Of a stretch of 62,839 nt of DNA, positions 6,686-62,008 are shown in pieces (the stretch's first letter is position 1; the number at the start of each line of letters is the position of its first letter). Origin of the DNA: a virus (lineage: Duplodnaviria > Caudoviricetes); the IMG/VR virus record IMGVR_UViG_3300011335_000322, positions 1 through 62,839 of that record; one strand, given 5' to 3'. The position numbers and the translations under genes are program-made. Under the pieces are notes generated by a model, which ran no database searches, was not told where the DNA came from, and was given only the letters and a program-made list of their open reading frames with translations.

Positions 6686-6716
6686 GGGTAGTACGTAATA
6701 GTGTACACTTCTTTTT

Positions 6717-6790
6717 GAGTGGCGGTAGTTTCCGTTGCTTCTCCTTGATAGGCAATCCTATCTTTACCCCCCGCACTGGGGGGTTTTTTT
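6717..6790 (+). ncRNA. Candidate trans-acting anti-RBS small RNA
   Basis: -10 TACACT at 6704-6709; hairpins GAGTGGCGG/CCGTTGCTT, GATAGG/CCTATC and ACCCCCC/GGGGGGT plus T-tract; 6729-6748 is complementary to several phage translation initiation regions. Confidence 0.65.
6766..6790 (+). terminator. Rho-independent terminator
   Basis: ACCCCCC-GCACT-GGGGGGT followed by a T run. Confidence 0.85.
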
Positions 6791-6799
6791 ATGGTTGTT

Positions 6800-6839
6800 T
6801 GTCTAACATTAGACATAGTATGGGGTGAATTTTTATAAT
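6800..6839 (+). promoter_or_regulatory. Palindromic operator 1 overlapping a sigma70-like promoter
   Basis: TGTC-TAACATTA-GACA at 6800-6815; TAGACA (6810-6815), 18-bp spacer, TATAAT (6834-6839). Confidence 0.55.
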
Positions 6840-7081
6840 TTTTATGTGGGGTGGTGTTTTGTTTGGATGGGGGGTGGGTGGACGATTTGGGGGAAATGTG
6901 TAGTACGGGTATGGATTAGTGTTGTTGTATGAGCAGTGTTGCTTGGCCCTAAAGGGGGGCTGGGGGTACAGTGGGGTCTAAGATTACTGCATTTCTGACC
7001 TTCCCCAGAACCCCGTAATGTCATACTAGAAGTGTCAGTAGGGAGAACGCCCTGCTGGTATCGCCCATGTCGGGCTTGTCG

Positions 7082-10244: not shown

Positions 10245-11849
10245 ATGAAAATCTACTTAAGTGATTGTGGAAGCGTGCTCAAGGCACAGATTGCGGACGC
10301 CAGCACGCTGGTGCAGGTCACGGGTACGCTGGACGAGGGCTACAGGGAACTGCGGCAATACCTGCCAGAGCCCACGTTCTCCACCCCTGCGTTCACATTA
10401 GAGCAGACCAGCATGCTGAAGAGACGCAGCCCCGATGTGTACGGGCAGTTACTCAACAACATGGTCGATTCGCTCTCAGCGTTCGCAGCACGGCGCATGC
10501 GTGGGCTCTGCCGCCGTTGGGCAGACAGGGAAAACGACCGCTCCCCCACAGCGCACTGTCGCGGGGGCTACTACCAATTGCACGGCAGCGGGGTCCGCCG
10601 GTTCAGGGCAATGAAGGAGATGTGTCGTGAACTCAACGTGCATGTCAAAGCGGCCATCCAAGGTGATGCGTATGAGCTAGTCGAGTTCATCATGGAGAAC
10701 GATGGGAACGACCTGATAGAACGGGTGTTCCCCAAGATAAGCCAGTTCGTTGCCGACCGCTTGGTCTTGGCAGACTGTGGTCACATCACCCGGCCCGATG
10801 ACATGAGAGATGTACACCGCACCTCAAGGAGCATAAGCACGATGTGCGAGCACTGCCGTGGCGAAAATGCGGTGTACTGCGAGGATGCAGAGGCGTACTA
10901 CTTAGAGTCTCGTGCCTACCTCCACAGCGATGACAATTGGTATACGTACGAAGAAGAGCGGGAGGAGGAGGAGGAGACTGCACACAATGGGCACTCCATG
11001 AGCTACTCCGCAGATGTCTTGCGGCATGCCGCTGCCGATGGGAGCATCCACAGTTCCAAGTATGGGGACTTCACGATGGGCATTGAGTTGGAGATGGCCC
11101 CGGGGCGTGCGTCTAGGTACGATGCCATTGAGGATGTGCGGAACCAGCTTGGGCATGACTACTGCATCATCAAGGACGATGGCAGCATCAGCGGGGTGAA
11201 TGGCTTTGAGGTAGTGACTGCACCCCGTGGTCTGAAGGAGCACATCACCCGCTTCAAAGCATGGGATGTTAACAAGTCATATCGGGCTTGGGATGTGGAG
11301 AAGTGCGGCACGCATGTGCACATCGACTCCCGTGCCTTCACTGAGTTGACTCTGGGCAAGTTCATCATGTTCATCAACTCCAACAACAACGCCGACTTCA
11401 TCCGCAATATAGCAGGCAGGCATCCGCTCAAGGACAGCCAAGCACGGGAGTACTGTGCCAATGAGGAGCAGGGCATCTTGGAGAACCCCAAGCAGGCCAT
11501 CCTCGGCAAGACGGCACAGCGCTACTACATGGTGAACCTGAACAACTTGGCTCATGACGAGTCCCGGCGCTTAGGGTTCAAGAGTACGTACACAGAGGGC
11601 AAGTACAACACGATAGAGCTTCGCATCTTCCGCGCCACACTCAAGAAGGAGCGCTTGCTTGCACAGATAGAGTTCACCCATGCCAGTGTGCACTTCTGTC
11701 GCAGTGCGAGTTTCCGCGAACTCAATGGCACAGAGTTCGTGTCATGGCTCAAGACGACCAACAACGCATACCCACACCTGTCCGATTGGTACGGCACACG
11801 CCGCCCCAAGCAGGCTCCTCAATCTCCCGCACTCGCAACAACTGAATAA
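10245..11849 (+). CDS. Putative amidoligase (COOH-NH2 ligase, glutamine synthetase-like fold)
   Basis: GIELE, DGSI, GFEVVTAP, CGTHVHI, RYYMVNL and TIELRIF motifs; N-terminal Cys/His-rich region. Confidence 0.8.
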   Translation: MKIYLSDCGSVLKAQIADASTLVQVTGTLDEGYRELRQYLPEPTFSTPAFTLEQTSMLKRRSPDVYGQLLNNMVDSLSAFAARRMRGLCRRWADRENDRSPTAHCRGGYYQLHGSGVRRFRAMKEMCRELNVHVKAAIQGDAYELVEFIMENDGNDLIERVFPKISQFVADRLVLADCGHITRPDDMRDVHRTSRSISTMCEHCRGENAVYCEDAEAYYLESRAYLHSDDNWYTYEEEREEEEETAHNGHSMSYSADVLRHAAADGSIHSSKYGDFTMGIELEMAPGRASRYDAIEDVRNQLGHDYCIIKDDGSISGVNGFEVVTAPRGLKEHITRFKAWDVNKSYRAWDVEKCGTHVHIDSRAFTELTLGKFIMFINSNNNADFIRNIAGRHPLKDSQAREYCANEEQGILENPKQAILGKTAQRYYMVNLNNLAHDESRRLGFKSTYTEGKYNTIELRIFRATLKKERLLAQIEFTHASVHFCRSASFRELNGTEFVSWLKTTNNAYPHLSDWYGTRRPKQAPQSPALATTE

Positions 11850-11860
11850 GGCTATCAACT

Positions 11861-12895
11861 ATGTGTCTCATCATCACTGGCAAGTCTGCCAAGATTCGCA
11901 GCACCCTGCTCAACACAGCCGGGTTACTCGACACCATCTACACATCCAACCCTGACGGGATTGGGCTGATGTACAGCACCGCCAAGGGACTCAAGACGGT
12001 CAAGGTGTTGCCCAAGTCGGCGGCAGATGCACGCGCCATCATCAACAAGATACCCAAGGATGCCCGGGAGATGGCAATCCACTTCCGCTGGGCGACACAC
12101 GGCAAGACAGACTTGCACAACTGTCACCCGTACGATGTCATACCGGGCTACGTAGCCATGATGCACAACGGCGTGCTGCACACCGGCAACGAGGCTGACA
12201 AGGACAAGTCAGACACATGGCACTTCATCCATGACTACCTGTCAGAGTCGGTGCACATGGCCCCGGAATTGGTGTTCGTTGATGGGTTCCTTGCCATGAT
12301 TGCAGAGTTCATCGGGGACAATCGGTTTGTGTTTATGAATGGCGAGGGGCGCATCAGCCATGTCAACAAGGACTCAGGCATTGAGCACGATGGCATGTGG
12401 TTCAGCAACACCTACGCATGGAACCCCGCACTGCTGATACCCACATACCGAACACGCGCGGTGTCCTCACGCTACCTCGGATCATGGAACGACACAGACG
12501 AGGAAGACTACGGGTACTACAACCGCAGCTTCAACGTGCACAAGCCCCTCTCCGTAGCGCCATCGAAGCCGCTTGTCACTGTGGATGAGATCGCCACGCA
12601 CCTTGAGGCATACGATGTGCCGGGTCTGTGCTATTTGCTAGAGGCGTTCCCCAGCACGACCGTGCACCTGCTGTGCAAGAACTTCAGCCCGAGTCCCACC
12701 TCTGAGGCGTATCGGGGGGAGATCAGCGCACATGAGACGGCTGTGTATGACATGCTGTTGGAGCAGGACATGACGGGGTTGCTGACCTACATAGCGCACT
12801 CTACGTCCTCCGCTGCCACAGTGGCGGAGGTGGTCTGTTACTACCTCAACTGGGAGCGATGTGTGAGCACCCGGCCCAGCATAGCAGCAGCCTGA
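11861..12895 (+). CDS. Class II (Ntn) glutamine amidotransferase
   Basis: N-terminal MC, NPDGIG, HFRWATHG, NCHPY, MHNG, SDT motifs. Confidence 0.9.
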   Translation: MCLIITGKSAKIRSTLLNTAGLLDTIYTSNPDGIGLMYSTAKGLKTVKVLPKSAADARAIINKIPKDAREMAIHFRWATHGKTDLHNCHPYDVIPGYVAMMHNGVLHTGNEADKDKSDTWHFIHDYLSESVHMAPELVFVDGFLAMIAEFIGDNRFVFMNGEGRISHVNKDSGIEHDGMWFSNTYAWNPALLIPTYRTRAVSSRYLGSWNDTDEEDYGYYNRSFNVHKPLSVAPSKPLVTVDEIATHLEAYDVPGLCYLLEAFPSTTVHLLCKNFSPSPTSEAYRGEISAHETAVYDMLLEQDMTGLLTYIAHSTSSAATVAEVVCYYLNWERCVSTRPSIAAA

Positions 12896-13008: not shown

Positions 13009-13491
13009 ATGAGTACCAATAAAGCACCGTGGACTGAGGTTCTTAAACAGTGGGAACCCACCCCCACTACAACGGTAACACCACCCGTTTTCCCAGTGAC
13101 GAACAACGTCACTCGTGAGACGTTTGAGTGTGTCAAGAAGAACCCCGGGATAACAGCGCCGCAAGTCGTGGCGATGCTGCCCCAACAAAAAGCCAACTCG
13201 GTGAAGTCCCTCTTGACGCAGATGGTCAAGAACGGGCTGTGCCGCAAGCAAGGCTTCGGGTTCTACGCCCTTGTTGACGAGTACCTGCCGTTGAAAAGAG
13301 CGTATGCCAAATACGCAGCGGTAAAGAAGGTCAAGGCAAAGCCCCCTGCCCTTGCCCCCGCCCCCTCAATGGAGCAACAACTCGCCCCAGCAAGGGAGCA
13401 ACGACTTGCTACGGCAAGCAACCTACTGATGTCCCTCAACGTGGTTGAGGCGCGTCTTTTGTACGATGAACTCAAGAAAGTTTTTAACTAA
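13009..13491 (+). CDS. Putative winged-helix DNA-binding protein
   Basis: KKNPGITAPQVVAML...SVKSLLTQMVKNGLC pattern; GGAGAAGCAATG start region. Confidence 0.55.
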   Translation: MSTNKAPWTEVLKQWEPTPTTTVTPPVFPVTNNVTRETFECVKKNPGITAPQVVAMLPQQKANSVKSLLTQMVKNGLCRKQGFGFYALVDEYLPLKRAYAKYAAVKKVKAKPPALAPAPSMEQQLAPAREQRLATASNLLMSLNVVEARLLYDELKKVFN

Positions 13492-13499
13492 GGATTTAT

Positions 13500-14462
13500 A
13501 TGGCACACGAACTAACAACCAATCAGCAAGGGCAAGTCGAGTTTGCCTACCTTGAACAAGACGGCCTGCCTTGGCATGGCCTCGGTCAACCGATGCCCGT
13601 GGGGGCAAGCATTGACGATTGGCGCAGCAAGGCGGGTATGGACTGGCGCATCCAGCGCTCTGAGGTGAGGTTCAACACGAGCCGCACTGAGGAGGTGCTG
13701 GTGAAGATGCCCGAGCAGCATGTGCTGTTCCGCTCTGACAACCATGAGGCGCTTGGGCTGGTGTCCAAGAAGTACCAAGTGGTGCAGCCCAGTGAGGTGA
13801 TTGAGTTCTTCCGGGACATCGCCAAGGCCGGGGGTCTGGAGTTGTCTGCGGCAGGGACGATCTACGGGGGCAAGCGCTTCTGGGCCACAGCCAAGATAGG
13901 CGAGGCAAGTCCGACCAGTATTAGAGACAAGATCAGTGGGTTCCTGCTCATCAGCACCAGCGCTGATGGCTCACTGGCAACCGAGGTGAGGCGCACAACT
14001 GTACGCACGGTGTGCTCCAACACGCTGGCTATGGCGATGGCGGATGCCCATGCGGCTGTGAGAGTCACGCACAAGTCAGTGTTCGACCCGGCAGCAGTGA
14101 AGGAGTTCATGGGACTCAACGAGGCCGCATGGGCGGCGTTCAAGCATCAGGTGGTACGGCTGGCTAACAAGCCTGTCGTCCTTGAAGAGGCAGAGCAGCT
14201 AACCGCCTTCATACTAGGTGGTGGAGAGAAAGTGCAGGCGACAGCAGGGTACAACAAGATACTCGACCTGTTCCAAGGCGAGGCCAAGGGGTCTGGCCTT
14301 GAGGGTGTGCAGGGCACAGCGTGGGGCTACATCAACGCCGTGACTGAGTACGCCGATTGGTTCTCACGGGCACGTAGCCAAGAGAACCGCTTTGTGTCCG
14401 CACAGTGGGGGCCGGGTGCTGACCTCAAGCAGCGTGCACTGGACGCTGTGCTGGCTGTGTAA
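13500..14462 (+). CDS. DUF932-family phage/plasmid protein
   Basis: MAHE..PWHGLG, YQVVQP, TVRTVCSNTL, TAWGYINAVTEY motifs. Confidence 0.85.
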   Translation: MAHELTTNQQGQVEFAYLEQDGLPWHGLGQPMPVGASIDDWRSKAGMDWRIQRSEVRFNTSRTEEVLVKMPEQHVLFRSDNHEALGLVSKKYQVVQPSEVIEFFRDIAKAGGLELSAAGTIYGGKRFWATAKIGEASPTSIRDKISGFLLISTSADGSLATEVRRTTVRTVCSNTLAMAMADAHAAVRVTHKSVFDPAAVKEFMGLNEAAWAAFKHQVVRLANKPVVLEEAEQLTAFILGGGEKVQATAGYNKILDLFQGEAKGSGLEGVQGTAWGYINAVTEYADWFSRARSQENRFVSAQWGPGADLKQRALDAVLAV

Positions 14463-14499
14463 TTAACCGGGGGCTTCGGCCCCCACAACAGGAGAAGCA

Positions 14500-14694
14500 A
14501 TGATTACATTTATAAAGAACTATTTCCGCAGACCCACGCCGCTGGAAATGATCGCCAAGGAATTGGCTGTCGCACACTTGTGCAAGCTAGAAGCTGAGAC
14601 GGCAGTTGACTATGCCGTGAGTGTCGTGCGCTACAACGACACACGCATCAAACGGTTAGAGCAACACATCAACAACCACAAGGAGCAGGTATGA
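14500..14694 (+). CDS. Small hypothetical protein, first of the coupled ORF chain
   Basis: 64 aa; AGGAGAAGCAATG start region. Confidence 0.75.
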   Translation: MITFIKNYFRRPTPLEMIAKELAVAHLCKLEAETAVDYAVSVVRYNDTRIKRLEQHINNHKEQV

Positions 14695-14939
14695 GTGACA
14701 CCAAGGAGATGGTATTGCTGGTCAGTAATCTGCTGGTGCAGCAAGCGATTGAGTCACGGGCAAGAAAGCCCGAGTCAGTGTGGCTCCCTCATTCGTTTGA
14801 GGAGGCAGAAGCCAATGCAAACTTGTTTGCCAAGACACAATTATCGGTCACCGACCCCGAGCGCAAGCGCAACTTGATACGAGCGTACGACCGAGTTAAA
14901 AAATCACGGGAGACATATTCTACGAGGAGTGCAGCATGA
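14691..14939 (+). CDS. Small hypothetical protein
   Basis: 82 aa, ATGA overlap. Confidence 0.7.
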   Translation: MSDTKEMVLLVSNLLVQQAIESRARKPESVWLPHSFEEAEANANLFAKTQLSVTDPERKRNLIRAYDRVKKSRETYSTRSAA

Positions 14940-15106
14940 GAGTTTTGTCTGTTAGTTGGAGTCCAGAACGGGACATTACCAAACTTAAATTTACTGACGA
15001 GTTTTTATCTTCTGGTTGGATCGTAAGAGCAGACGTTTTAAAAAACCTTGTTTACGTAATACAAAAAATGTATGACGAAATTTTAGAGGAAGAACACCAT
15101 GTATGA
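14936..15106 (+). CDS. Small hypothetical protein (56 aa)
   Basis: Below ORF-track cutoff; MRVLSVSWSPERD...EEEHHV; ATGA overlap. Confidence 0.65.
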   Translation: MRVLSVSWSPERDITKLKFTDEFLSSGWIVRADVLKNLVYVIQKMYDEILEEEHHV

Positions 15107-15224
15107 CGATGGCGACTATGGTGGGATTGATGAGTTTATGCACTGGGTGACCGTCATCATTCTCTTTCTGATGACTATTGTTTTTCTCGCAGGAGTTGCG
15201 GGATTCATTTGGGTTTTAATATGA
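15099..15224 (+). CDS. Small single-pass membrane protein (41 aa)
   Basis: MYDDGDYGGIDEFMHWVTVIILFLMTIVFLAGVAGFIWVLI; coupled on both sides. Confidence 0.65.
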   Translation: MYDDGDYGGIDEFMHWVTVIILFLMTIVFLAGVAGFIWVLI

Positions 15225-15517
15225 AATACACACCAGCACCTTGGTATAGCAGAGGGGCGTCAATACGCCCAGCAAAAGGCCCCGGCAGCACAGGAGGGTA
15301 CAAGCCCTTGGCATCGGCGCAGCACGACAAGCGCCTGCCTGACAACCGTCTGGAAAATGCAAGGATGATTGCTGCTGCCCCAGAACTATATGAAGCCCTT
15401 TCATGGCTGATGCGACAAGTACCAGAGCCAAGCCTGAAGGGTGAATACACAACAGGCTATCTTGCTTGCAAAGTTGCATTGCACAAAGCCATAAACGGAG
15501 AAAGGCTAGGAGCATGA
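15221..15517 (+). CDS. Hypothetical phage protein
   Basis: TPAPW...NARMIAAAPELYEAL, a common phage accessory motif. Confidence 0.75.
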   Translation: MKYTPAPWYSRGASIRPAKGPGSTGGYKPLASAQHDKRLPDNRLENARMIAAAPELYEALSWLMRQVPEPSLKGEYTTGYLACKVALHKAINGERLGA

Positions 15518-15753
15518 ACACCGAAGAAGACGAATTTAAGAGGATCGAAGCAGAGGCCAAGCGCCGAGCAGCACAGGAAGACGATGACACACAAACCTAT
15601 ACAAGTGAGAGTGCAGCCTCATACTCTTATCGCTGCGGGTACGAGGCGGGTGCTGCCGCCGAGCGTGAGGCGTGTGCAAAGGTAGCAGATAGATGGCCTG
15701 ACTACGATGTGCAGGGATTGGCTGAAGCTATCAGAGCAAGGGGACAAGCATGA
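15514..15753 (+). CDS. Cassette ORF with EREACA...IRARGQA tail
   Basis: ATGA overlap; tail shared with 18449-18667. Confidence 0.75.
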   Translation: MNTEEDEFKRIEAEAKRRAAQEDDDTQTYTSESAASYSYRCGYEAGAAAEREACAKVADRWPDYDVQGLAEAIRARGQA

Positions 15754-16121
15754 CCTGTAAAGACAAACTTGAAAACAATGGCACTTGCCCTCATCACAAT
15801 CTGCAATGCGGGTGGCCTAAATGCAATGAGCCAGAACAGGAATTTGTCGGTTGCATCCCTAGTCATTGGGTAGATAAGGCAAAGCAGATTGCTAATGGGC
15901 CTATCGCATATCCAGATGCCGAAAGAGCACATCAGGCAATCGCGCTAATTAAGATTCTGTTGAAGTCCACCCCACCACAGCGCACATGGGTGGGGCTGAC
16001 GCAAACACAGGTCAAGCTGCTGTGGGAGGGCGTGCCAGAGGAGGCCATCAAGTCTGGCGATTCTGTGAACTGGATTTTTTACACGCACATCAATGAAGCT
16101 TTGAAGGAGCGGAACACATGA
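15750..16121 (+). CDS. Cassette ORF with WVGLT...LKERNT tail
   Basis: 123 aa, repeat boxes A and B. Confidence 0.75.
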   Translation: MTCKDKLENNGTCPHHNLQCGWPKCNEPEQEFVGCIPSHWVDKAKQIANGPIAYPDAERAHQAIALIKILLKSTPPQRTWVGLTQTQVKLLWEGVPEEAIKSGDSVNWIFYTHINEALKERNT

Positions 16122-16279
16122 AATACGAAGACATAAAAGACTTCTATCAACGCTGTGACGAACACCCCGAACATCAAAGCGGGATAATTAGTAACTCAAT
16201 GATTCAACAGCGGTTACACGAAGAGATTGACGAACTGCGTGAGTACATTGAAGCCAAACTCAAGGAGAAGAATACATGA
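16118..16279 (+). CDS. Cassette ORF (53 aa) ending IEAKLKEKNT
   Basis: Below ORF-track cutoff; MKYEDIKDFYQRCDEH...; ATGA overlaps at both ends. Confidence 0.75.
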   Translation: MKYEDIKDFYQRCDEHPEHQSGIISNSMIQQRLHEEIDELREYIEAKLKEKNT

Positions 16280-16725
16280 AAGAAGAGTGGCTATTTCAAG
16301 GAGCCGTAGTCCCAGTAGACGTTGAAACAACAGCAGCGCTTGTAACTGAAATCAAAAGGTTGATTGACGTTGTTGGCGGTATGGCTTTGGCACAGCCAGA
16401 GCAGCAAGCCGAGCCACCAGAGTGGCCTTTGATTAAGAACATCTTGGACGAGTACGGGTTACAGGCAATTGCTTTTGTTGCGGAGTGGAAAAAAACACAG
16501 CAGCAAGCCGAGCCAATATGCCCCGAATGCAAAGCAGCAGTGCTTTATGAGTGCGTGGCTTGCAGCAGCAACAACTACCCACCCGCAGCACAGCGCCCGT
16601 GGGTAGGGCTGACGGATGATGAGATAAAAGAAATCGTTGGGCCGTATGGAGACACACCCATCAAAGGATACACACGCAAACTGTTTGACCAGATTGAAGC
16701 CAAACTCAAGGAGAAGAACACATGA
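16276..16725 (+). CDS. Cassette ORF with WVGLT...IEAKLKEKNT tail
   Basis: 149 aa; CPEC..CVAC zinc-ribbon-like segment. Confidence 0.75.
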   Translation: MKEEWLFQGAVVPVDVETTAALVTEIKRLIDVVGGMALAQPEQQAEPPEWPLIKNILDEYGLQAIAFVAEWKKTQQQAEPICPECKAAVLYECVACSSNNYPPAAQRPWVGLTDDEIKEIVGPYGDTPIKGYTRKLFDQIEAKLKEKNT

Positions 16726-17615
16726 GATTTTTTACACAAGGTCGTATTGATGGGCTTGATAAAACAACAGAGGCGGGTTTTGCTGAAGCCTTGTTGATTG
16801 CTATGTCCAATTTGAAGAACGAGCAAGGCTTGTTGTTGAATGTCAGGCTGAGTGATGATTTCAATCAACAGATTGACTTTGCAAAACAAATTGCGCGAAT
16901 GATGGTCAAGGAGCAGCCAGAGCAGAAGCCTGTGGCGTGGGGTGTTTTTGATGGCCCAAATTTGCATGACGTGGACTTCACTGAAGAAGAGGCGCATGAA
17001 ATGGTTCGGCTGAAAGGCGATGGGTCAGTAGTAAAGCCCCTCTACACATCCACGCAACCACAAATGCAACCCTGCGCCGGTCGCAACTGCGGTAGCACCA
17101 ACCCCAACCTGCACTCGGCTGAGTGCTTCGAGGACTACGAGAAGTCAACTGGAATGGCACAACCGGTGGCACCAAAGTGTGGGGCAATCATCGAAGTGTT
17201 TGGTAAGGACTGGCGGATTGACTACATGTCGCTTCCAGTAGGCAAACACAAACTCTATACCCAACAGTACACCTACATCGCCCCACTAGCAGAGCAGGAG
17301 TTTGTGGCACACGCTGTCATAGCTGGCGCACTGTTTGACTTCATGGGCTGGTTGACTTCACGCAAGGAACGCCTTGTGCTGTCCTCCGCTGATGAAGCAT
17401 CGCCAGCAGTAGATGCAATCAGGGACTTTGCAAAGATTCGGGGCTTGTCGCTGGATGACGCAAAAGTGCAGGACTGGAACACCACCCCACCACAGTGTAG
17501 GCCGCTAACAGTGCATGAAATCGCAGAGTTTGTAGGTACGAAAGAATATGGGTCAGAACAGCTTAAATGGTTTCGTTTTGGTGAAGCCGCCCATGGCGTA
17601 AAGGAGAACACATGA
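16722..17615 (+). CDS. Mosaic cassette ORF
   Basis: 297 aa; QPEQKPVAW and PLYT linkers, ends VKENT. Confidence 0.75.
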   Translation: MRFFTQGRIDGLDKTTEAGFAEALLIAMSNLKNEQGLLLNVRLSDDFNQQIDFAKQIARMMVKEQPEQKPVAWGVFDGPNLHDVDFTEEEAHEMVRLKGDGSVVKPLYTSTQPQMQPCAGRNCGSTNPNLHSAECFEDYEKSTGMAQPVAPKCGAIIEVFGKDWRIDYMSLPVGKHKLYTQQYTYIAPLAEQEFVAHAVIAGALFDFMGWLTSRKERLVLSSADEASPAVDAIRDFAKIRGLSLDDAKVQDWNTTPPQCRPLTVHEIAEFVGTKEYGSEQLKWFRFGEAAHGVKENT

Positions 17616-17908
17616 CAGACGAAGAGCGTTTACAAATGATTACCGAACAGCTTATCTTGGTGCGTGACAATTTGTTTCGTAACATGAGTAAGTCAATGCA
17701 GAAGCTACAGGCACGAAGCATCAATGAAGTATTGGAGTTGCCCAATCACACACAATCACCACAGCGCCCGTGGGTAGGGCTGACGGACGAGGAGGTGCGG
17801 GATTTGTGGTCATGGTCTGCAACGTCAGAGGCAGAGAAAACAGCAACCACTCAACAACACGCATTTGCCAGAGCCATTGAAGCCAAACTGAAGGAGAAAA
17901 ACACATGA
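17612..17908 (+). CDS. Cassette ORF with WVGLT...IEAKLKEKNT tail
   Basis: 98 aa. Confidence 0.75.
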   Translation: MTDEERLQMITEQLILVRDNLFRNMSKSMQKLQARSINEVLELPNHTQSPQRPWVGLTDEEVRDLWSWSATSEAEKTATTQQHAFARAIEAKLKEKNT

Positions 17909-18240
17909 CTGAAACTGTATCGCTTGAAGTTGCCATCGAGGTCGTTTTACGCAACGGGCCTACGTTCGAGACTATTGCTGGACTATGCAAGATGGCGGTG
18001 GAGGCAGACAGGTTGACACAACCAGAGCAAGAGCCAGAACCTGTGCCTGAAAAGAAGTGGATTTACGGCACACCCCTGCTGGATGCCATGACTCAAGACT
18101 ATGTGCCAACACAACGCCCGTGGCAGGGGCTGACGGATGATGAAATTGAAGATTTTGTAAGCGCATTGTGGCCTGTGGGAGTAGGAGCAGGGAAACTTCT
18201 CCGAGCCATTGAAGCCAAACTCAAGGAGAAGAACACATGA
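17905..18240 (+). CDS. Cassette ORF with WQGLT...IEAKLKEKNT tail
   Basis: 111 aa. Confidence 0.75.
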   Translation: MTETVSLEVAIEVVLRNGPTFETIAGLCKMAVEADRLTQPEQEPEPVPEKKWIYGTPLLDAMTQDYVPTQRPWQGLTDDEIEDFVSALWPVGVGAGKLLRAIEAKLKEKNT

Positions 18241-18452
18241 ACGATAAATTAAAAGCTTTGATAGAAGACTTGCGTTTAAACCATGGGTTCTGCCCAAAGG
18301 AAGTCATCTTGCAAGCGGCAGATGAGTTGGAGAAGATGGGCGGTCACATTGAAACCCTATACGCCATGTACAAAGTAGCAGTTAAGCAACGGGACTACCT
18401 GATGGATCAACAACGAGCGCAGGTTGAGGCTATGCGGGGTAGAGTGCAATGA
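18237..18452 (+). CDS. Small hypothetical protein
   Basis: 71 aa, QAADELE motif, ATGA overlaps. Confidence 0.7.
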   Translation: MNDKLKALIEDLRLNHGFCPKEVILQAADELEKMGGHIETLYAMYKVAVKQRDYLMDQQRAQVEAMRGRVQ

Positions 18453-18667
18453 CCTACAACGCAGAACAGATTACCTATATGTTGGCTGAAGCTATAGACC
18501 AAAACCGTGAGTACAAGTCATGGCATTGCAGTACTCAGCACCTGATGGCCCTTGTTGAGAGGGTTGTTGCCGAGGAGCGTGAGGCGTGTGCACAGTTGTG
18601 TGAAGCCTTGCCTGAGCCTGATGGTGCAGACTTAGCGGAGCGAATCCGAGCAAGGGGACAAGCATGA
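18449..18667 (+). CDS. Cassette ORF with EREACA...IRARGQA tail
   Basis: 72 aa. Confidence 0.75.
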   Translation: MTYNAEQITYMLAEAIDQNREYKSWHCSTQHLMALVERVVAEEREACAQLCEALPEPDGADLAERIRARGQA

Positions 18668-18876
18668 CTGACTGCCCAAACTGTGCGTATCACAGGAAAC
18701 GAGCACAACTGTGGCGTGATGAAGCCTACAAACAAGCAGGGCATCCGTTGCCTGAGCGTGAGCGTGAGTGGGTAGGGCTGACGGATGAAGATTGGGCCAA
18801 GGTTGGGGATATGCCCGACACGTTTGATCAAGGTGTAGCATGGGCACAGGCAAGACTGAAGGAGCGCAACACATGA
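18664..18876 (+). CDS. Cassette ORF with WVGLT...LKERNT tail
   Basis: 70 aa. Confidence 0.75.
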   Translation: MTDCPNCAYHRKRAQLWRDEAYKQAGHPLPEREREWVGLTDEDWAKVGDMPDTFDQGVAWAQARLKERNT

Positions 18877-19130
18877 CTTATGAAGAGTTTTTAAAATTTG
18901 TGCCAGCCAAGTGCATATACGAAACCCTTTACGAGGACACTGAGGGCCGACCAATACTTGTGATCAGTATGCTTGGTGCGTATGGCATGGTGAACAAAGC
19001 ACAACGCCCGTGGCAGGGGCTGACACTAGAAGAGGTTTTGGATTTGTTTGATGTAAACAATGTCTATGGCAGTAAGTGGATTGAGTTCGCCAGAACAGTC
19101 GAAGCCGCCCTGAAAAAGAAGAACACATGA
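18873..19130 (+). CDS. Cassette ORF with WQGLT...LKKKNT tail
   Basis: Start at ATG 18873 by ATGA overlap. Confidence 0.75.
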   Translation: MTYEEFLKFVPAKCIYETLYEDTEGRPILVISMLGAYGMVNKAQRPWQGLTLEEVLDLFDVNNVYGSKWIEFARTVEAALKKKNT

Positions 19131-19336
19131 GATGCCCCATCTGCAACGCACAGACTGATGTAAAAGACTCACGAACACGAAAGGAAACCAACAGTGTTAT
19201 CAGAAAACGGAAATGCTTCAACGACCACCTCTTCCAAACGGAAGAAAAAACCAATCAACTTCTACGACCCGTTCACGAGGGTAGACCCCAAGCTGCTGGA
19301 ACAGATGTACCGAGCAGCACAGAAGGAAAAGCGTAA
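19127..19336 (+). CDS. NrdR-like zinc-ribbon protein
   Basis: CPIC..TDVKDSR..RKRKC...HLFQTEE. Confidence 0.7.
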   Translation: MRCPICNAQTDVKDSRTRKETNSVIRKRKCFNDHLFQTEEKTNQLLRPVHEGRPQAAGTDVPSSTEGKA

Positions 19337-19361: not shown

Positions 19362-19534
19362 ACGGCATACCCACATTCAGTACTTGGGACAGGGCAACGC
19401 TAGATCAGTTTGCGCTGGACGCATGCGTCAAGATGCAACAGCAGCAAGAAACGATTGAGCAGTTGACGCTGGATAAGAAGACCGCCCTTGAAGCGTACCG
19501 CAGGCTAATAAAAGGGACTTCACATGACGCCTGA
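19358..19534 (+). CDS. Small coiled-coil protein (58 aa)
   Basis: MNGIPTFSTWDRATLDQFA...EAYRRLI; fills the gap before VRR-NUC. Confidence 0.7.
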   Translation: MNGIPTFSTWDRATLDQFALDACVKMQQQQETIEQLTLDKKTALEAYRRLIKGTSHDA

Positions 19535-19832
19535 AGCAAGAGTTAAAAACGAAATCAAGAAGATGTTGGATGCCCATGAGGTGTACTACTTCATGCCAGC
19601 AGCCAACGGATACGGACGCGCAGGGATACCCGACATCGTGTGTTGCGTCAACGGGTGCTTCCTTGCGATTGAGTGCAAGGCAGGCAAAGGAAAAACAACA
19701 GCCCTGCAAGACAGGGAGTTGATAGCCATCCACAAGGCAGGAGGTAGCGCTGTGGTTATCAACGAGACTTCCCTGCACACACTGCAGGGAATCATTACAG
19801 ACATCAAACAAAGGACAACGACATGGACTTAG
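19524..19832 (+). CDS. VRR-NUC domain nuclease (putative Holliday junction resolvase)
   Basis: TPEARVK, GIPDIV, FLAIECKAG..TALQ. Confidence 0.85.
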   Translation: MTPEARVKNEIKKMLDAHEVYYFMPAANGYGRAGIPDIVCCVNGCFLAIECKAGKGKTTALQDRELIAIHKAGGSAVVINETSLHTLQGIITDIKQRTTTWT

Positions 19833-22382: not shown

Positions 22383-23048
22383 ATGACCAAGGTAGTATGG
22401 AGCCACTCATCCCTCAAAGACTTTGAGGGATGTGCCCGTAGGTATCACGAAATCAAAGTTCTTAAAAAATACAAGTTTCAAGAAACAGACGCAACGCGAT
22501 ACGGCACGGACTTGCACAAAGCGGCAGAAGACTACCTTGCTGATGGGGTGGTACTGCCATCCCGGTTTGCCTTTGTCAAGGACGTTCTGGATGTGCTTGA
22601 TAAGAAGCCCGGACGCAAGCTGACGGAGCACAAGATGGCTCTGACAGAAAAGCTGCGTACCTGTGAGTGGGACGCGCCTGATGTGTGGGTGCGCGGCATA
22701 GCGGACTTGCTCATCATTGACGACGAGAACCTGACGGCGTGGGTGGTGGACTACAAAACGGGCAACAACAGATACCCTGACAGAGAGCAGCTTGTGCTGA
22801 TGTCACTGCTGGTGTTTGCCCACTTCCCCCACATCAGACAGGTTAAGTCGGCCTTGCTGTTTGTTGTTAAGAACGACATGGTTAAGCACAACATGTCTGT
22901 CGATGAAACCAAAGATGAGTGGCAGCGCTATCGTGAGCGTTCAGCACGCATTTCCGCATGCATTGACAGTGGCGTGTGGAACCCCAAACAAACGCCACTA
23001 TGCGGGTGGTGTGCAGTGAAGAGTTGTGAATTTAACCCCAAGCACTAG
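22383..23048 (+). CDS. PD-(D/E)xK exonuclease, Cas4/RecB-like
   Basis: RGIADL, VVDYKTG, QL; N-terminal Cys plus C-terminal CGWC..SC. Confidence 0.85.
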   Translation: MTKVVWSHSSLKDFEGCARRYHEIKVLKKYKFQETDATRYGTDLHKAAEDYLADGVVLPSRFAFVKDVLDVLDKKPGRKLTEHKMALTEKLRTCEWDAPDVWVRGIADLLIIDDENLTAWVVDYKTGNNRYPDREQLVLMSLLVFAHFPHIRQVKSALLFVVKNDMVKHNMSVDETKDEWQRYRERSARISACIDSGVWNPKQTPLCGWCAVKSCEFNPKH

Positions 23049-29808: not shown

Positions 29809-29998
29809 ACGGGGGCAGGGGTTTTTTATCCCCTGCCTTGATATTGAGGCGGTAAGGGAGGAGGGGCTAAAGAAAGCGCTCTCCCTCCGCATGCTGGATG
29901 CCCGTGGTGTTACGGGCATCCGCAAGGGGTTTACGGGCGTGTGGTTCTATCGGTTAGCCGTTCGAAACTCACCGCAATCCGGTTCTGTTCCGTCTTGA
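29768..29998 (+). CDS. Small hypothetical protein, last of the plus-strand arm
   Basis: YPW...GQGFFIPCLD; converges on the giant ORF. Confidence 0.65.
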   Translation: MMPLVIRYPWRLIERGQGFFIPCLDIEAVREEGLKKALSLRMLDARGVTGIRKGFTGVWFYRLAVRNSPQSGSVPS

Positions 29999-32900
29999 TT
30001 TTATCCAGCATGTTGTCCTTCTGCGCCGTGGTCATTGTGGGGTGCGCCCGTATCTTGCGCTCCATTGAGTACAGATCGCCCAAGCGTTTGAACGTCTGCC
30101 CAGACACAGCGGCAGCGGCCAGTTCGTTAGCGTAGCGCTGTGCAAATGCCGCAGCTTCCGCACGCTGCCCACGTTCCACCATGTGCACATAGGTCTGTCG
30201 CGCTTGCTGGATGCGTTCCATGTGGTCATAGGCCGCATCAATAAACCCACGCCCTTCAGCCGACTGAAACAAGCCCCCGATCAAGGGCTGTTTGTTCAAC
30301 GGCACAGAGGCTTTCTCTCCTGTGCCACTAGCCCCTAACAGCGGGTCAAAAACTTGCAGCAGCGCCACACCCAAGCCACCCGTGTACCCACGCACAAGGT
30401 GCGTCAGCATGATGGGCGACACGCCTGCCATCCCGGTTAGCGACCCGGCTATGCGTAGCGCTTCGGGTGTCGTGTCTTTGAACCGATACTCGGCCTGTAT
30501 CTTTTTCTCTCGTTCAGACTCAATTGGGCCAACGGTAGTGCTTCCGTAAAACGCCTCTAGCACAGGCTTGGCGGCTGCTGGGACTACGCCCGGAACCGAT
30601 TGCGCCAGCACACCACCCATACCTTTAAGCGCCTCCCGGGCTTTGGTATCCCGGAAAACAAGGTCAATTATCATCTGCGGCAGTGCAACAAACAGCACAC
30701 CAACCTCATAGGGGATGGGTATCTTGAGCGGTTCTTTAAGCCCCGGCAAGGGCATGAACAAGTTGCTGTAGCGCTCCTGCGGAGTTGCTTTCTTGTACGC
30801 CTCATCGTCCTGCATCATGGCTGCATACGCCATAACACCAACAGTCAACATCGCCCCCCGTGCGTACAGCTTGCGTTTCAATTCCAGTTGTTCAGAGAAC
30901 GGCAGCTTGCCCTTCAGCGCACGGTACAACAAATCCAAGCCCTGCACTTGGGAATTAAAAAACGGAATCAGCGTACTCAAATAGTGCATGCTGGGCGACA
31001 GGCCGTGCCGACCAAAGTTCTGAGACTCGGCAGCGTTAAGCTGTGCCCGGAACTCAGACAAACCTTTTTTCAACCCGTCTTGATAAACCGTGGCGCGGGT
31101 AGCAGCGTCTGTCTGCAAGGCAAACGTATCCAGCGCTCCCATTGTTTTTTTCCACCAGTTCTTGCCGGTGGCAATGCTCTCAATGAACTGCTGCATGTCC
31201 CGCTCACTGCCGCTAAACACGTTGCTGCTAACCACCAACCCACCACTGAGCGCATCCTCGGCAGTGCTCGTACCCATCCGCATTTTGCCAAGTTCTTTCA
31301 AGGCATTGAGTATGGGAACACCGTCTACGCCCGACAGTATGGCGGCGTTTATAGGGTCGCGGACAAGCTGCCGAAACGGATACACAGGAGCGCGGGTGAC
31401 AAACTTACGCACCAAATCTGCCGGGTAGCCCATTGCACGCACAAGGATGGGGATGGTGGTTTTGATCCCCGACATCCCCGCAACAATTAGTTCCGCAGGT
31501 ATCCCAAAGGTATCTGAGTCAATCGTTGCAAAATGCGGCTCACCCTTCAGGCGGTAGTGCACCGTGTCTTTAGAAGCAAGCCCTTGCCCCTTACCCATCT
31601 TGGAAACAAACCCCGCCTTGAACAGCGCGTTGCTTGACTCTAGCGACTCTTTGTTGTGCATCGACAAGCGTGTGAGCATGTAGGTGTTCTGCACCGCGCT
31701 TGTGAAAATAGGCAAGATCGTTTGTTCAGACCCCAGCATGCGGACGAGTTCCTTGTCGTTTGAGATGTCCCCTATGCGGATGGCAGTTTCAGAATCCGAG
31801 TACAGCTTGACAACCCCGTCCTCAATCCGATAGAACGGCACAAACGGCGTCTTCTTCAGTCGGGCAACTTCTTCTGCACTGAGTAGGTCGTGCTGTTCCG
31901 CAAAATCTAACAGGCCGCCGTTGAACTGTTTGTACTCCAGCAGGGCGGCATCCATGTACTTCTTGGCCGTGGGGTTTGTTTGTAGAGATGCAACGGCGTT
32001 TTCGTATTCAACTTTGGCCTCCGCAGCTTTCTTTCCCGCCAGCCGCTCCCATCCATTGGGCACAGCGTCAGCACGTTGCCCAGCAGCAATTCTGGTAAGC
32101 ATCATCTCGCCATCTTTAACCCCGGACTTTTCCACAAGCTCCGCCACACGCACCATAGTAGCGCCTGCTTTGCGTCCGTAACCGTACTCCCCCGATTTTG
32201 GATCGCGCACTATGCTGATAGGCCCGTACGACAGGAACTGACCCACGGCCTGCGAAACCTTGTCGGCCATCCGCATGAAGTAGTTGGCTTGGAACAGTTC
32301 GTTGTTGGTCAGCTTACCTGCTTTTTCAGCAGCAGCAAAGGCTGCTTCCCTCGCCGCCTTAGCGTCTATGTACTGCACCCGTCCAGCCAAGCCTAAGAAG
32401 TTACCCCGGAAAGTTGTCAGCGCATCAGGGCTGCTACCAATAAATACCGACTGTGTTTTTGCAAAACTTGGCGTTGCGGCGTTGCCTACCTGCTGGCTAG
32501 ACGGCGTAAAGATGTTGTCGATGGCAAGAATAGACGCATCCAGCATGTTGTCCACAGTCTTGGGGTCAATGCCAATGGCACGCAAGATAACGCTCTTGAA
32601 CGCACGCAACATGTCCGACAGACGCCACGACCGCTCCTTCAACTGTTCTTGCAACCGTTGGTTTGACAGGACTTCAGCCACAAACTCTTTCAACGTCTTT
32701 TTGGCATTGACGCTGGTGACACCGGGGTCTTTCTTAATCATTGCGTGGATAGCCATAAGCTCTCTTATGGCGGCACGTTGGGTGTCCGTAAGCTGGCTTG
32801 GATCTTCGTCATACATGTCGAGCACACGGTCAGCGCCAGCGTGTGTGCCTTCGTGCAGCAGCGCCTCCTGATTTAACCCACCGTTGCGACTCAGGTACAC

Positions 32901-35900
32901 CGCTTTCTTGTAGAACATGCCGATGGCTTCTTCGCCTTTGCTGTCCACAATCGTGTCCTGCACAGTAGAACTTGTGTCGTCCAACAACAACGACAGCCGC
33001 CGTGCAACAGCTTTGTTAAGGGCATCCGACCCCTTGTCGTTGGCAATATCTGTCAACGCCCCTTCAAGCTCATTGTTGGCAACCAAATCAATTTGGGTTG
33101 GCGATAGGTCACGGCTGTACCCTTCGACCCCACGGGCATACGAACGTGTGTAACCAAAGGTACTCCGTTCTGTCTCACTACTATCCAAAGTTGCTTTAGC
33201 TTTAATCCTACTCGGAGCCAACTCTTCTTGTTCAGGCGAGTATGCCCCCTGTGAAGATTCTTCTTTTCCAGTAGCAATTAGTCGAGACGTTGCGCTGCGA
33301 CGAGTGCTTGGAATTGGTAGTTCCGCTGCTGCTAATTTGCCTCTAACAGTGTCTAAAATACGTTCACGCCTATCAGATTCGGCTTCTGCATCTTCCAATT
33401 CTGTTTGAGCAATCTCTCTAGCTGCGTTTGATTTTGCAGCCCTTTCGCGTTTGTCCGCTTCTGTAACCGCAGCAACAGCCTCTCTAAAACGCTCTGTTGC
33501 AGCAATAAGCTCTAAAGAATTACCGTAACCTAACAGGCGTTTGCCGGTTTCCATGCGGGTTTCAATTTCGGCTTCACTCAGCCCGTCCGTAAGCTGGTCG
33601 TATTGAGCTTGCAGTTCTGTACGGCGGGGTGTGTTTTTTGTGGCAGCGTCCAACTGCGCTTTGGTGAACGCAAGACTGAGTGCATTAGCTGACTCTTGTG
33701 ATAAATCAGCTTCTTCCAACGCAACGCGACCCGATTGTTTTGGTTGGTTGCCTTTGGTAATAGATTTCCGCGACTCTTTAGTGCCCGAAAGCATTTCAGA
33801 AGGTGGAGGCGTTGCATCGCGTACAACTGGGCCTTTTGTAGGTCGCGGCAACCGAACACCTTCGGCAATTTCTTGGGTGTAGACGTCTTCGTCTGTAAGA
33901 AGAACACCCAAAGCGTCTGCGTTTGGGCCGACCTGTGTAGTTGTGTCTGTGCCCAAGTCATACACCTGAGTAAGTCGGGCCTCTAGTTTCTGTATTTCTT
34001 TTATTTTTGCCCTAACTGCTTTAGCATCAATGGATTTGTACGCCCTATCTAAAGTGTTTGTGATTTTAACAAGGTTGTCGTTTGCAGTTTTGAGCGCAGC
34101 CCCATCGCCTTTTTGTCGAGCGGCCTTGTCAACTTCTTGTTGCGCCAAACTAACTTGTGCACGCACCTTGTTTATTAAGTCTGTTTTTTCTAACTGTGCA
34201 AGTTCTGTTGTGGCTTTTCCCAACAGTTTTTTTGCATTAACCTGTGTGGCTTTGGCTACGCCAGAAGCTGTGCTGCGTACACGCCTGACGCCTTGAAGCC
34301 CCAATCCTTGCTGTGCGGCAGCTACAGTCTGTCCGGGCACACCAGCATAGGGTGCGTTACGCGCTGCGGTTGCCGCTGCTTTGGCTGTTTGTGCAGCTTG
34401 AGCGTCTGCTTTTTGTTTTGCAACTACGGCGGCTAATTTTTCTTTTGCCGTGTCGGCTTGGTCTAATGCATCTTTTTGTACCCTAAATGCTTCGTCTTTT
34501 TCTGCAATCAGTTTTTGCAGATCAGGAGAATTAGCCTGTTTTTGTACAAGCGCATCTATCTTTTGCTGTATTTCTTTTTTGGCGCTTTGTACTTTTTTAC
34601 TTAGCTCCAACTGAAACAAGAGCAGGTCTCTTCGTGCCGCCGCATACATACCCACCGCTTTACTGTGTGCGGCATCTACTTTAAGCGCTTCCGGTTTTAC
34701 AAAATTTAAAGCACTTGCAATACCAATCTCGTCCACAGCGTTAATAAAACTGGCTTTGTATTCTTGCAGTTTTTTATCCAACGGCGCTATTTGAGTTTCG
34801 GTATTGTTTACCGCCGTCTCTAACCGTTTTTTAGTTTCCAGTACTAGGTTTGTGTCTTGCCATTTAAAAGACGCAAACGCTTTTCGAATGGTCTGTGCAT
34901 TTTTATAGAGCGCGTCTGTGCCCCATTTTTTTACCAATGCTTGTAGCTTACGAATTTCTTCCGCAACAGCTTCAAAAGAATCTGGGTTAAGCGTGCCACG
35001 TTCTGCAAAGCCTAATTGTGCTTTGCTGGTTAACAACGCAGCCATCTCGTTATGTGCTGCAACAAGTTTGTCTGCGGTACTAGCCGTTTGCGCTTCTTTT
35101 GTCACCGTTGAAACCAACACTTGTGCACGACTAAGCGCTACAGAAGCCTGCGCCACCTTGTTAACGGGTGTGATAGCCGTTTTGGGAATGTCTGACATTC
35201 CCCAGCTTTCTTTGTGCTTTGGCCCCTTGCGCGGCGCACCCGTTACATCCCGGTAACCCCTACCGCCTTGCAGTTCTTCCGCAAGACGTTGCCCCGGAGC
35301 CGCATTTCTTAAAACATCGGCTTGTTGATAGTAGGACTGCTGTGCAGTTTTTAACGCATCCGCTTCTGCTTTTAACTTTTCGTTCCTAGACAGCTCTTTT
35401 TCTAACAAGCCCTCTAGCTGTTGTACCGGCCCCTGTTTGCCTGTTTTGCGAATAGCGCTGCCTATGTTAGCAGTGCGCGTAAACCAAGCTGCGTCTTCAC
35501 GCAGTTGGGCTTGCTCTTTACTGACAGAACTATCTAACTCAGATTCCGCAAGGTCTTTTCTTGCATTTTCAAGTTGCGTTTCTAACTTGGCTATGTTTGT
35601 TTGGTTTGCCGTCTTGCGTTCTTGCGTTTCTTCTGGGGCTAAACGCTTTAAACCATCCAAAGATTGTGTGGCGTTGTTAACAACAACATTAAGTTCGTTT
35701 AAACGTCTTTGTGCAGGTTCAAGGTTTGCAGCCGCCTGCAACCCCTCTGCGCCGCTAACCGCTGTTTTATAAAATTCACCGCCTGCCGTAGGCAAAGTGT
35801 TTTTCTTTACTACATCTTTTAAACGATTAACAAGCTCTTGCTGTTTGTCTCTTGCAGCTATTGCATCCGTCAACCCTGTTTCTGCTTGCGCTAATTGTTC

Positions 35901-41510: not shown

Positions 41511-41519
41511 TTTGATTCC

Positions 41520-44309: not shown

Positions 44310-44318
44310 GATTCGTCC

Positions 44319-61190: not shown

Positions 61191-61219
61191 AATATATCAC
61201 ACTATTTGGGGGGATGCAA
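61191..61219 (-). promoter_or_regulatory. sigma70-like promoter
   Basis: TTGCAT, 17-bp spacer, extended -10 TGA-TATATT. Confidence 0.6.
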
Positions 61220-61925
61220 GATATTTAAATTTCCAACCCGTATACGGGCCACGTACCAATGATTTACCGGACTTGAGTGCCCGATTGGCTGTGGGCGGTT
61301 TTAATTTTAGCGCAATGAGCAGCGCTGCGACACTTGCGTACCCTGTGATGTTCCCCACAGGGTCAATAGCTACTACAGCCTTGCTGACCTTTGCGCCGTG
61401 GTCTGGGCGCTCTTTGCCGTACCAGAAGTTGCCCTCCCCCATTAGAGTAGCACTGATCTTAGCACGGACATCAGCGGGTTGTGGTCTGCCGCGCATGGTT
61501 TCCCGCCGTTTGTCCTTCTCTTCGTCGGACTGGATTCGGGCTTTTGATGCAATACCGATTCGAAACTTAGCGTTGTCTGTCTGAAAAAAAGTTTTTCCCC
61601 ACATAGGGTTCTTTTCTCCAAACCACCCCGTAGTTGGTGCTGTAGCGTCTGTCGCAATGTTGTAACAATATTCTTCGCCAACGTGCTTTTTGAGCCATAC
61701 GTTTTCCGCCGCCAATAAGTCGCTGTCGGGGGTAACCTCTTCCACCACAGCAAATACAAACGCCTGCGCTCCGTACTTCAACCACGCTGCTTGCAAATGC
61801 TTGTTTGCGTGATCTCCTCGACGTAACCGCCAAAGATGCCGCGCTTTGCGTTTCTCGTAATTTACGGCGCTGCCGACATAAAACTTGTTGTTGACCACGT
61901 TGATGATTTTGTAAACGCACCGCAT
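61197..61925 (-). CDS. Free-standing GIY-YIG homing endonuclease with NUMOD3-like repeats
   Basis: CVYKI.N..NNKFYVGS....R, H.N.HLQ.AW.KYG, YN; GEKNPMWGK and GEGNFWYGK; start at ATG 61925. Confidence 0.85.
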   Translation of the reverse strand: MRCVYKIINVVNNKFYVGSAVNYEKRKARHLWRLRRGDHANKHLQAAWLKYGAQAFVFAVVEEVTPDSDLLAAENVWLKKHVGEEYCYNIATDATAPTTGWFGEKNPMWGKTFFQTDNAKFRIGIASKARIQSDEEKDKRRETMRGRPQPADVRAKISATLMGEGNFWYGKERPDHGAKVSKAVVAIDPVGNITGYASVAALLIALKLKPPTANRALKSGKSLVRGPYTGWKFKYLASPQIV

Positions 61926-62008
61926 GTTGGTTGCCTCTGGACTTTGACACAGGTAACGGCCTGCTCCGTAATCAAAGTGTACCACAGGCGAATGAATAAC
62001 ACAACAAC

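Follow-up and report, generated by a model that had tools for sequence, protein, structure and literature searches.

Probable Gene Exchange at Short Conserved Sequences

The origin of phage mosaicism has been argued over for decades, the question being whether it arises at short conserved linkers or through random illegitimate joining followed by selection. To our knowledge clear linker candidates are few, the promoter-early stem-loop (PeSL) elements being the main one. The present analysis concerns a further candidate, a pair of coding sequences of 25-40 nt, here called box A and box B, which recur in a row of 17 small open reading frames (ORFs) at positions 14500-19336 of a tailed-phage contig of about 62.8 kb (IMG/VR record IMGVR_UViG_3300011335_000322, positions 1 to 62,839; in the following the window). 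The synonymous sites of the two boxes are kept in many unrelated, uncultured phages, and the boxes are found where genes or gene halves have been swapped.

PeSL-mediated shuffling in the hyperplastic regions of T4-like phages is the closest known system (Arbiol et al., 2010, PMC2839356; Comeau et al., 2014, PMC4122927). In both systems short conserved motifs recur between small ORFan genes that are not essential, the hyperplastic region being flanked by core genes, and the box, like the PeSL, would carry the expression signal of the next gene together with the exchange point. PeSLs mark where close relatives differ by insertion, deletion or replacement; joints are seen at boxes A and B too, but box B junctions hold breakpoints no more often than other junctions. 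PeSLs are intergenic and transcriptional, with a sigma-70-like promoter and a terminator hairpin, while the boxes are coding and appear to be translational; the boxes also seem to provide a second exchange point, box A, inside genes; and it is for PeSLs that mini-circles have been shown physically. Since there is no promoter or terminator at the boxes and the motif is coding, the array would work like PeSL shuffling without being a member of that class. Between positions 13400 and 20200 of the window 3 promoter-like and 11 terminator-like sites were predicted, against 4.3 and 7.3 +/- 2.5 in shuffled sequence; neither kind exceeds chance, and none of them is found at a box.

Mosaic joints at gene boundaries in lambdoid phages were reportedly described by Susskind and Botstein and by Juhala, Hendrix and colleagues, to whom the idea of linker or boundary sequences is attributed. 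Those mosaics resemble the array in that high identity gives way abruptly to no similarity where genes meet, and in the short conserved stretches that were proposed as recombination linkers. Here, however, the candidate linker is a defined string of 25-40 nt whose synonymous sites are kept across over 120 contigs from unrelated phages, and the same string serves as protein tail and ribosome-binding site. Integron arrays are similar in that small genes with varied functions and no promoters of their own stand in a row, are exchanged as units and share a common upstream expression signal. They differ in their folded attC-type sites, which are absent here, the boxes being direct repeats in coding sequence, and the exchange at the boxes would be general homologous recombination, in frame and inside coding sequence. 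Comparison of the 40 larger window ORFs with PHROGs and of 34 proteins with Pfam revealed no integrase. In the open-access literature searched, no prior description of a coding, translational junction as a recombination linker was found.

The Array and Its Two Boxes

The 17 ORFs are all on the plus strand and encode 41-297 aa (Table 1). At 15 of the 16 junctions the stop codon of one ORF and the start codon of the next share the 4-nt overlap ATGA, and the remaining junction, ORF3/ORF4 (15099-15106), is an 8-nt overlap, ATGTATGA. The ORF and junction listing thus agrees with the original prediction, which had described a chain of 17 ORFs with ATGA at 15 of 16 junctions. The array can be read as a single operon in which the stop/start overlaps would couple translation from one small ORF to the next.

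Box B (ATTGAAGCCAAACTCAAGGAGAAGAAYACATGA) encodes IEAKLKEKNT* together with the Shine-Dalgarno (SD) sequence AAGGAG and the next ATG, and it closes ORFs 8, 9, 11, and 12. A codon-degenerate pattern of the box, with up to three mismatches allowed, has 4 matches in the window against 0.00 expected from 100 shuffles. The four near-identical and four degenerate copies that had been claimed were all recovered by the pattern scan and the listing of protein tails. The SD is found at -14 to -9, inside the upstream coding sequence, and the final six codons of box B double as SD, spacer and start codon of the following gene. In three family members that have no adjacent start (L144, L145, and L208) these codons read AAR GAA AAA AAT and the SD is absent. 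The AAG-GAG and ACA-TGA codon choices are in other words those of an SD and an overlapping start, and they are lost where no start follows. It appears that the ribosome-binding site of the neighbor dictates the last five residues of many proteins, and the tail KEKNT shows how the translation signal of one gene can dictate the protein sequence of another. The tails ...KEKNT*, EKNT* and KEKNI*, for which AAGGAGAAGAACACATGA codes, are also seen on unrelated small proteins of the related loci L248, L249, and L253. Two adjacent family ORFs at 13980-14225 of L249 share a variant box encoding EALLKERNT (GAAGCCCTTTTGAAGGAGCGCAACACATGA), which is identical over 30 nt in the two and points to duplication or conversion on a local scale.

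Box A, with the protein string QRPWVGLTDEE (QRPWVGLTDDE in the form CAGCGCCCGTGGGTAGGGCTGACGGATGA), was identified by a repeat finder about 100 nt upstream of box B. It is present in ORFs 7, 9, 11, 12, 15, and 16, 32-59 aa before the stop codon, and box B is therefore the end of a shared domain and not only a junction. Six to eight of the array ORFs are modular, with a unique N-terminal part, box A, a variable stretch of 20-35 aa and box B. The blastp likeness among the six ORFs carrying box A is confined to the last 42-58 aa. The claim that the N-terminal parts are unrelated is consequently largely right, the partial exceptions being ORF11 and ORF16, which are 32% identical over their full length, and ORF9 and ORF15, which align over 77 aa. 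The original prediction described box B as a junction. Its string of stop, SD and start was found as described, but box A, the domain end, a second class of junctions and ORF8, which has box B and no box A, had been overlooked.

The second class is represented by ORF6 and ORF14. These share a C-terminal module, ...EREACA...IRARGQA*, ending in AAGGGGACAAGCATGA, and align over 56 aa with 41% identity (E 5e-9). The last codons of this ARGQA class hold the SD AAGGGG and ATGA. ARGQA is the second most common tail (12/816) at the other ATGA junction candidates of related loci, and the depth of metagenome contigs peaks at this module too. The module has the appearance of another family built along the same lines.

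Conservation at the Nucleotide Level

Exact box B is present in two unrelated lake phages, in both at ATGA junctions, and IMG/VR contigs hold it in no fewer than 123 stretches. The carriers include phages with unrelated replication modules, and one locus (L166) has only the boxes in common with the window when compared by blastn. Exact box B was also found in 7 contigs of metagenome-assembled genomes among 185,579 prokaryote species genomes, mostly those of freshwater Betaproteobacteria. These contigs may be binned phage DNA, and the hosts of the box-carrying freshwater phages are probably betaproteobacterial. In public runs X1, X3, X4, and X8 the summed contig depth between 14000 and 20200 reaches 300-970 in the bins that hold a box, as opposed to about 25 in neighboring bins, and is 10-40 times that of these neighbors, which indicates that the boxes are very abundant across many genomes of river and lake communities. 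The contigs of this phage stop at the boxes, as expected of a repeat common to many genomes.

To examine the conservation, viral contigs were scanned for any DNA encoding EAKLKEKN(T), the pattern being open to every synonymous codon. The scan retrieved at least 122 stretches, with 128 distinct matches listed, and the same genes served as codon background. Among the listed matches TGA follows directly in 120/128, and ATGA is formed in 114/128. The codons along the box, with the background in brackets, are GAA in 95% (61%), GCC in 87% (22%), AAA in 74% (59%), CTC in 55% (6%), the first AAG in 97% (41%), GAG in 88% (39%), the second AAG in 85% (41%), AAC in 95% (59%), and ACA in 92% (38%). Box A was not selected for by the pattern, yet it is present in 92/120 listed matches, and it too departs from the background, with GGG in 82% (22%), CTG in 78% (22%), ACG in 68% (16%), and GAT in 96% (46%). 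The choice of GCC, CTC and the box A codons has no explanation in an SD or a start codon. Conservation at the protein level only, the alternative to the synonymous-site conservation that the original prediction called for, is accordingly not borne out.

The information content falls to about zero from +4, right after ATGA, and upstream of -40. Among box-spanning pairwise high-scoring segment pairs from 77 distinct loci, 4153/4286 start between -45 and -25 and 4210/4286 end by +14, which shows that the box is an island between unrelated genes. The 816 other ATGA junction candidates of the same loci have a weak SD profile of at most 0.38 bit per position, and coupling thus does not demand the exact box string. 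The most common tail among these candidates is nevertheless KEKNT (19/816), so that the string of SD, spacer and ATGA occurs on unrelated proteins too.

Gene Turnover and Joints

The protein encoded by the DUF932 gene to the left of the array retrieved 80 related loci. In the six closest relatives (L248-L253) the flanks are 89-95% identical in DNA, while from about 14.7-15.2 kb to 19117 the match to the window is reduced to short patches. The sets of ORFs differ between the window and its relatives, in 9 relatives nothing corresponds to the variable parts of ORFs 7, 8, 11, 12, 15, and 16, and the ORF13-14 pair is found in L252 in a different order relative to the genes resembling ORF10 and ORF12. 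The array is a hyperplastic accessory-gene block.

An all-against-all comparison of 11 arrays showed that homology ends at most 5 nt from a gene junction in 54/152 cases on the left and 52/181 on the right, compared with 4.3% of random positions. A breakpoint was seen at 7/18 box B junctions, 2/10 ARGQA-class junctions, 58/97 other ATGA junctions and 42/83 non-ATGA junctions. These shares indicate that genes are exchanged as whole units at every type of junction, with no preference for box B. Of the proposed cassette array with swapping at box B, the cassette-like behavior and the nearly complete change of content stand, but box B is not a general swapping site, and much of the exchange falls at box A inside genes. 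Random breakpoints and conservation limited to amino acids, the two outcomes that would have spoken against the original prediction, were hence not what was found.

Four chimeric genes have their joints exactly at box A. A 156-aa ORF of L252 matches window ORF12 at 8-10 of every 10 nt over the 90 nt that precede box A, and window ORF9 over the 100 nt after it, the switch taking place inside the shared box. In the pairs L172/L186 and L196/L173 the N-terminal parts are 84-89% alike and diverge after box A, and in L137/L195 the sequence from box A to box B is 94% alike while the N-termini are unrelated. At box B, homology starts at -26 to -43 in 7/7 pairs that share the downstream gene, and it ends at +4 to +6 in 7/7 pairs that share at least 150 nt upstream. 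In the window itself, four relatives become homologous again at 19117-19119, in the tail of ORF16, L253 does so at 16710, within the box B of ORF9, and at the box A of ORF16 homology starts at 19017 with L252 and at 18998 with L312.

The stretch was found in 20 public runs, in all of them as assembled contigs. Contigs of runs X1, X3, X4, and X8 contain candidate joints with sides of 20-32 nt and unknown or replaced letters in between. These fit family members of other phages and not deletions in this phage.

Explanations for the Boxes

It is on balance probable that the array is a translationally coupled accessory operon and that boxes A and B are in-frame crossovers for homologous recombination between co-infecting phages, with box B adding an SD and a start codon. 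Being islands of near-identical DNA in otherwise unrelated genes of more than 120 phage contigs, the boxes would act as crossover points during co-infection. A crossover in box A would swap N-terminal modules in frame, while one in box B or at the junction would swap whole downstream genes and keep frame, ribosome-binding site and coupling. The recombination functions could be provided by the phage itself, which encodes a PD-(D/E)XK exonuclease and an Hjc-like resolvase. The joints would then stem from homologous rather than illegitimate recombination, and the ease of exchange would help to keep the boxes uniform.

Several points weigh against this explanation. The regular one-sided ends at box B and its junction (14/14) are partly forced, since both loci of each pair had been selected by the presence of the box. 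The breakpoint shares of box B and other ATGA junctions indicate that most exchange in this lineage needs no box B. In the assembled contigs, the only data available, neither deletion alleles nor duplications nor circles between boxes could be shown. Illegitimate recombination combined with selection for working proteins would leave the same joints at boundaries. The p-values of the codon bias in box B (binomial, 3e-4 to 8e-54) overstate the significance because the matches share ancestry. There are also free synonymous sites in or near the box, Ile being encoded by ATT in 43 and by ATC in 42 cases and the third position of Leu holding 0.46 bit, and these fit site-specific selection at least as well as homogenization. 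Finally, boxes within a genome are not more alike than boxes from different genomes (28.5 vs. 31.3 of 36 nt, permutation p 0.998), in a sample biased against detecting homogenization as one copy per locus was chosen for its exact match.

In a bolder version, which can be put forward only tentatively, the two boxes would propagate themselves as linkers for recombination in frame and be the translational equivalent of integron attC sites or T4 PeSLs. The gene or gene half between two boxes would be passed by general recombination among unrelated co-infecting freshwater phages and would come in frame, complete with ribosome-binding site and coupling. The boxes would stay identical at synonymous sites in more than 120 contigs, amid surroundings that are replaced, because the cassettes that best match the consensus spread furthest. 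The linker question can be tested directly by synonymous recoding of GAAGCCAAACTC and box A with exchange as the readout.

It is rather doubtful, although it must be taken seriously, that dual coding alone accounts for the boxes, box B being a C-terminal helix combined with SD and start and box A a protein motif, so that selection on translation, acting through the efficiency of re-initiation, the accessibility of the local mRNA and codon context, sets the codons and recombination is incidental. The strongest biases (AAG GAG ... ACA TGA) cover exactly the SD and the overlapping start and, as mentioned above, disappear in the members without a coupled start. Neighboring synonymous sites differ sharply in constraint, and the free third positions of Ile and Leu, the ordinary breakpoint frequency at box B junctions and the missing homogenization within genomes are all as dual coding would have it. 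The bias nevertheless extends to codons outside the SD, namely GCC and CTC, and to the box A codons, with a distance of some 100 nt to any start. A conserved RNA structure connecting the boxes was not seen, as a search of 31 stretches from box A to box B gave 4 predicted pairs, 0 covarying, at -2.4 kcal/mol. Moreover, the other ATGA candidates manage with their weak SD profile, and the chimeric genes joined at box A do exist.

That the boxes are cis-regulatory sites of a regulon, recognized as RNA or DNA by a phage or host factor such as a RegA-like translational repressor or an anti-SD-like RNA encoded around 6700-6790, is improbable. Conservation of nucleotides beyond what coding requires would suit such a role. 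The original prediction placed the junctions under control of a candidate small RNA (sRNA), which is probably the element at 6700-6840, located where the packaging genes and the rightward operon diverge. An anti-SD-like sequence, CTTCTCCTTGA, is found here at 6738-6748, followed by a strong plus-strand intrinsic terminator at 6766-6790. A near-consensus sigma-70 promoter (11 of 12) at 6810-6839 comes after this terminator; upstream of the candidate RNA no plus-strand promoter was predicted, and the RNA has no Rfam match. The window holds two complements of box 11-mers, at 4106 and 6738, against about 0.5 expected per strand by our own estimate. A small RNA at 6738 is possible, but its 11-nt complement covers the SD core and matches box B no better than any other AAGGAG SD. 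Being at chance level, the proposed sRNA control carries no weight and was discarded. Regulation would further require the same factor in phages with unrelated replication modules, and box A is not near a start.

It is highly improbable that the repeats are remains of a recent tandem duplication of one gene in this genome with diverged N-termini, since despite the six to eight family members within 3.4 kb and the alignments of ORF11 with ORF16 and ORF9 with ORF15, the copies have no DNA likeness outside the boxes, the variable parts of six ORFs lack counterparts in the relatives, and the same boxes are found in more than 120 unrelated contigs.

The Shared C-Terminal Domain

The two boxes frame a C-terminal domain of about 45 aa that matches no Pfam, PHROG or NCBIfam model. 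A protein search gave 227 relatives at E <= 0.001 among 2470 candidates, and the 120 relatives listed had no informative names and no Pfam domain. One homolog was labeled DUF1778 by its source. Longer fused forms were limited to 4 proteins, none of them with a Pfam domain. This flags a large unannotated protein family in freshwater phages.

An AlphaFold2 model of ORF12 based on 70 aligned sequences has an extended segment at residues 71-77 and helices at 78-88 and 95-109 (pLDDT about 87-92). The predicted strand-helix-helix topology is compatible with the ribbon-helix-helix (RHH) fold of TacA/DUF1778, NikA, MobC, CopG, and the N-domain of PutA. The structural neighbors of the model are weak, with TacA1, NikA-like, MobC and RHH_1 at TM 0.39-0.49, and PutA RHH, CopG and ParG at Foldseek E-values of 7-8, below significance. 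The domain has no match to a Pfam RHH family at E <= 0.1, the best hit of its profile among PDB sequences (E 0.24) is not an RHH, and a fold search over 48,161 chains gave nothing with Z >= 5. An RHH fold may be taken as a lead only.

Genome Context

The host of the array is a freshwater tailed phage with a genome of about 60 kb. The window encodes a terminase, a portal protein, DNA polymerase A, a helicase, a primase and an endolysin, and its large terminase is closest to those of Pelagibacter phage HTVC027P (51.6%) and lake phage DSL-LC04 (52.1%). The array is located between the DUF932 gene on the left and replication genes on the right. Coordinates are given in Table 1.

Table 1. Positions of the array ORFs, the boxes and the neighboring genes in the window.
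Feature	Position	Strand	Remark
DUF932 gene	13500-14462	+	conserved left flank; query for fetching relatives
ORF1	14500-14694	+	
ORF2	14691-14939	+	
ORF3	14936-15106	+	
ORF4	15099-15224	+	
ORF5	15221-15517	+	
ORF6	15514-15753	+	tail AEAIRARGQA*
ORF7	15750-16121	+	box A and degenerate box B
ORF8	16118-16279	+	box B, no box A
ORF9	16276-16725	+	box A and box B
ORF10	16722-17615	+	degenerate box B tail
ORF11	17612-17908	+	box A and box B
ORF12	17905-18240	+	box A and box B
ORF13	18237-18452	+	
ORF14	18449-18667	+	tail AERIRARGQA*
ORF15	18664-18876	+	box A and degenerate box B
ORF16	18873-19130	+	box A and degenerate box B
ORF17, NrdR-like zinc ribbon	19127-19336	+	first conserved gene right of the variable block
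Box B copy 1	16247-16279	+	end of ORF8 / start of ORF9
Box B copy 2	16693-16725	+	end of ORF9 / start of ORF10
Box B copy 3	17876-17908	+	end of ORF11 / start of ORF12
Box B copy 4	18208-18240	+	end of ORF12 / start of ORF13
Degenerate box B	16089-16121	+	ORF7 tail NEALKERNT*
Degenerate box B	17583-17615	+	ORF10 tail AAHGVKENT*
Degenerate box B	18844-18876	+	ORF15 tail ARLKERNT*
Degenerate box B	19098-19130	+	ORF16 tail VEAALKKKNT*
Box A in ORF7	15979-16009	+	RTWVGLTQ
Box A in ORF9	16589-16634	+	QRPWVGLTDDEI
Box A in ORF11	17760-17805	+	
Box A in ORF12	18110-18155	+	
Box A in ORF15	18761-18791	+	
Box A in ORF16	19000-19045	+	
Second junction class, ORF6	15721-15753	+	tail AEAIRARGQA*, SD AAGGGG, ATGA
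Second junction class, ORF14	18635-18667	+	tail AERIRARGQA*
Hjc-like Holliday-junction resolvase or endonuclease	19524-19832	+	putative recombination function of the phage
PD-(D/E)XK exonuclease	22383-23048	+	putative recombination function of the phage

ORF17 matches Pfam PF22811 over residues 1-40 with 34.7 bits (cut-off 27.2). With its 69 aa it lacks the ATP-cone of full NrdR, and TIGR00244 scores 23.6 against a required 124.65. A perfect GC hairpin without a T-run, GGGGGCTTCGGCCCCC, is found at 14469-14484 between the DUF932 gene and ORF1 and is kept in close relatives; it may have a part in RNA processing or stability, or act as a promoter hairpin. Upstream of the array, at 10245-12895, there is a gene pair encoding an amidoligase (PF12224) and a protein similar to class-II glutamine amidotransferases.

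Scans of the window with Rfam and for tRNAs gave no matches. A 3214-aa ORF on the minus strand (29931-39575) has no PHROG match at E <= 1e-5, and the same is true of three large ORFs beyond it (39612-46916). A gene for a homing endonuclease of the GIY-YIG type (phrog_314, E 1e-28) is found on the minus strand at 61197-61985 among the structural genes, where it adjoins the gene encoding the major head protein.

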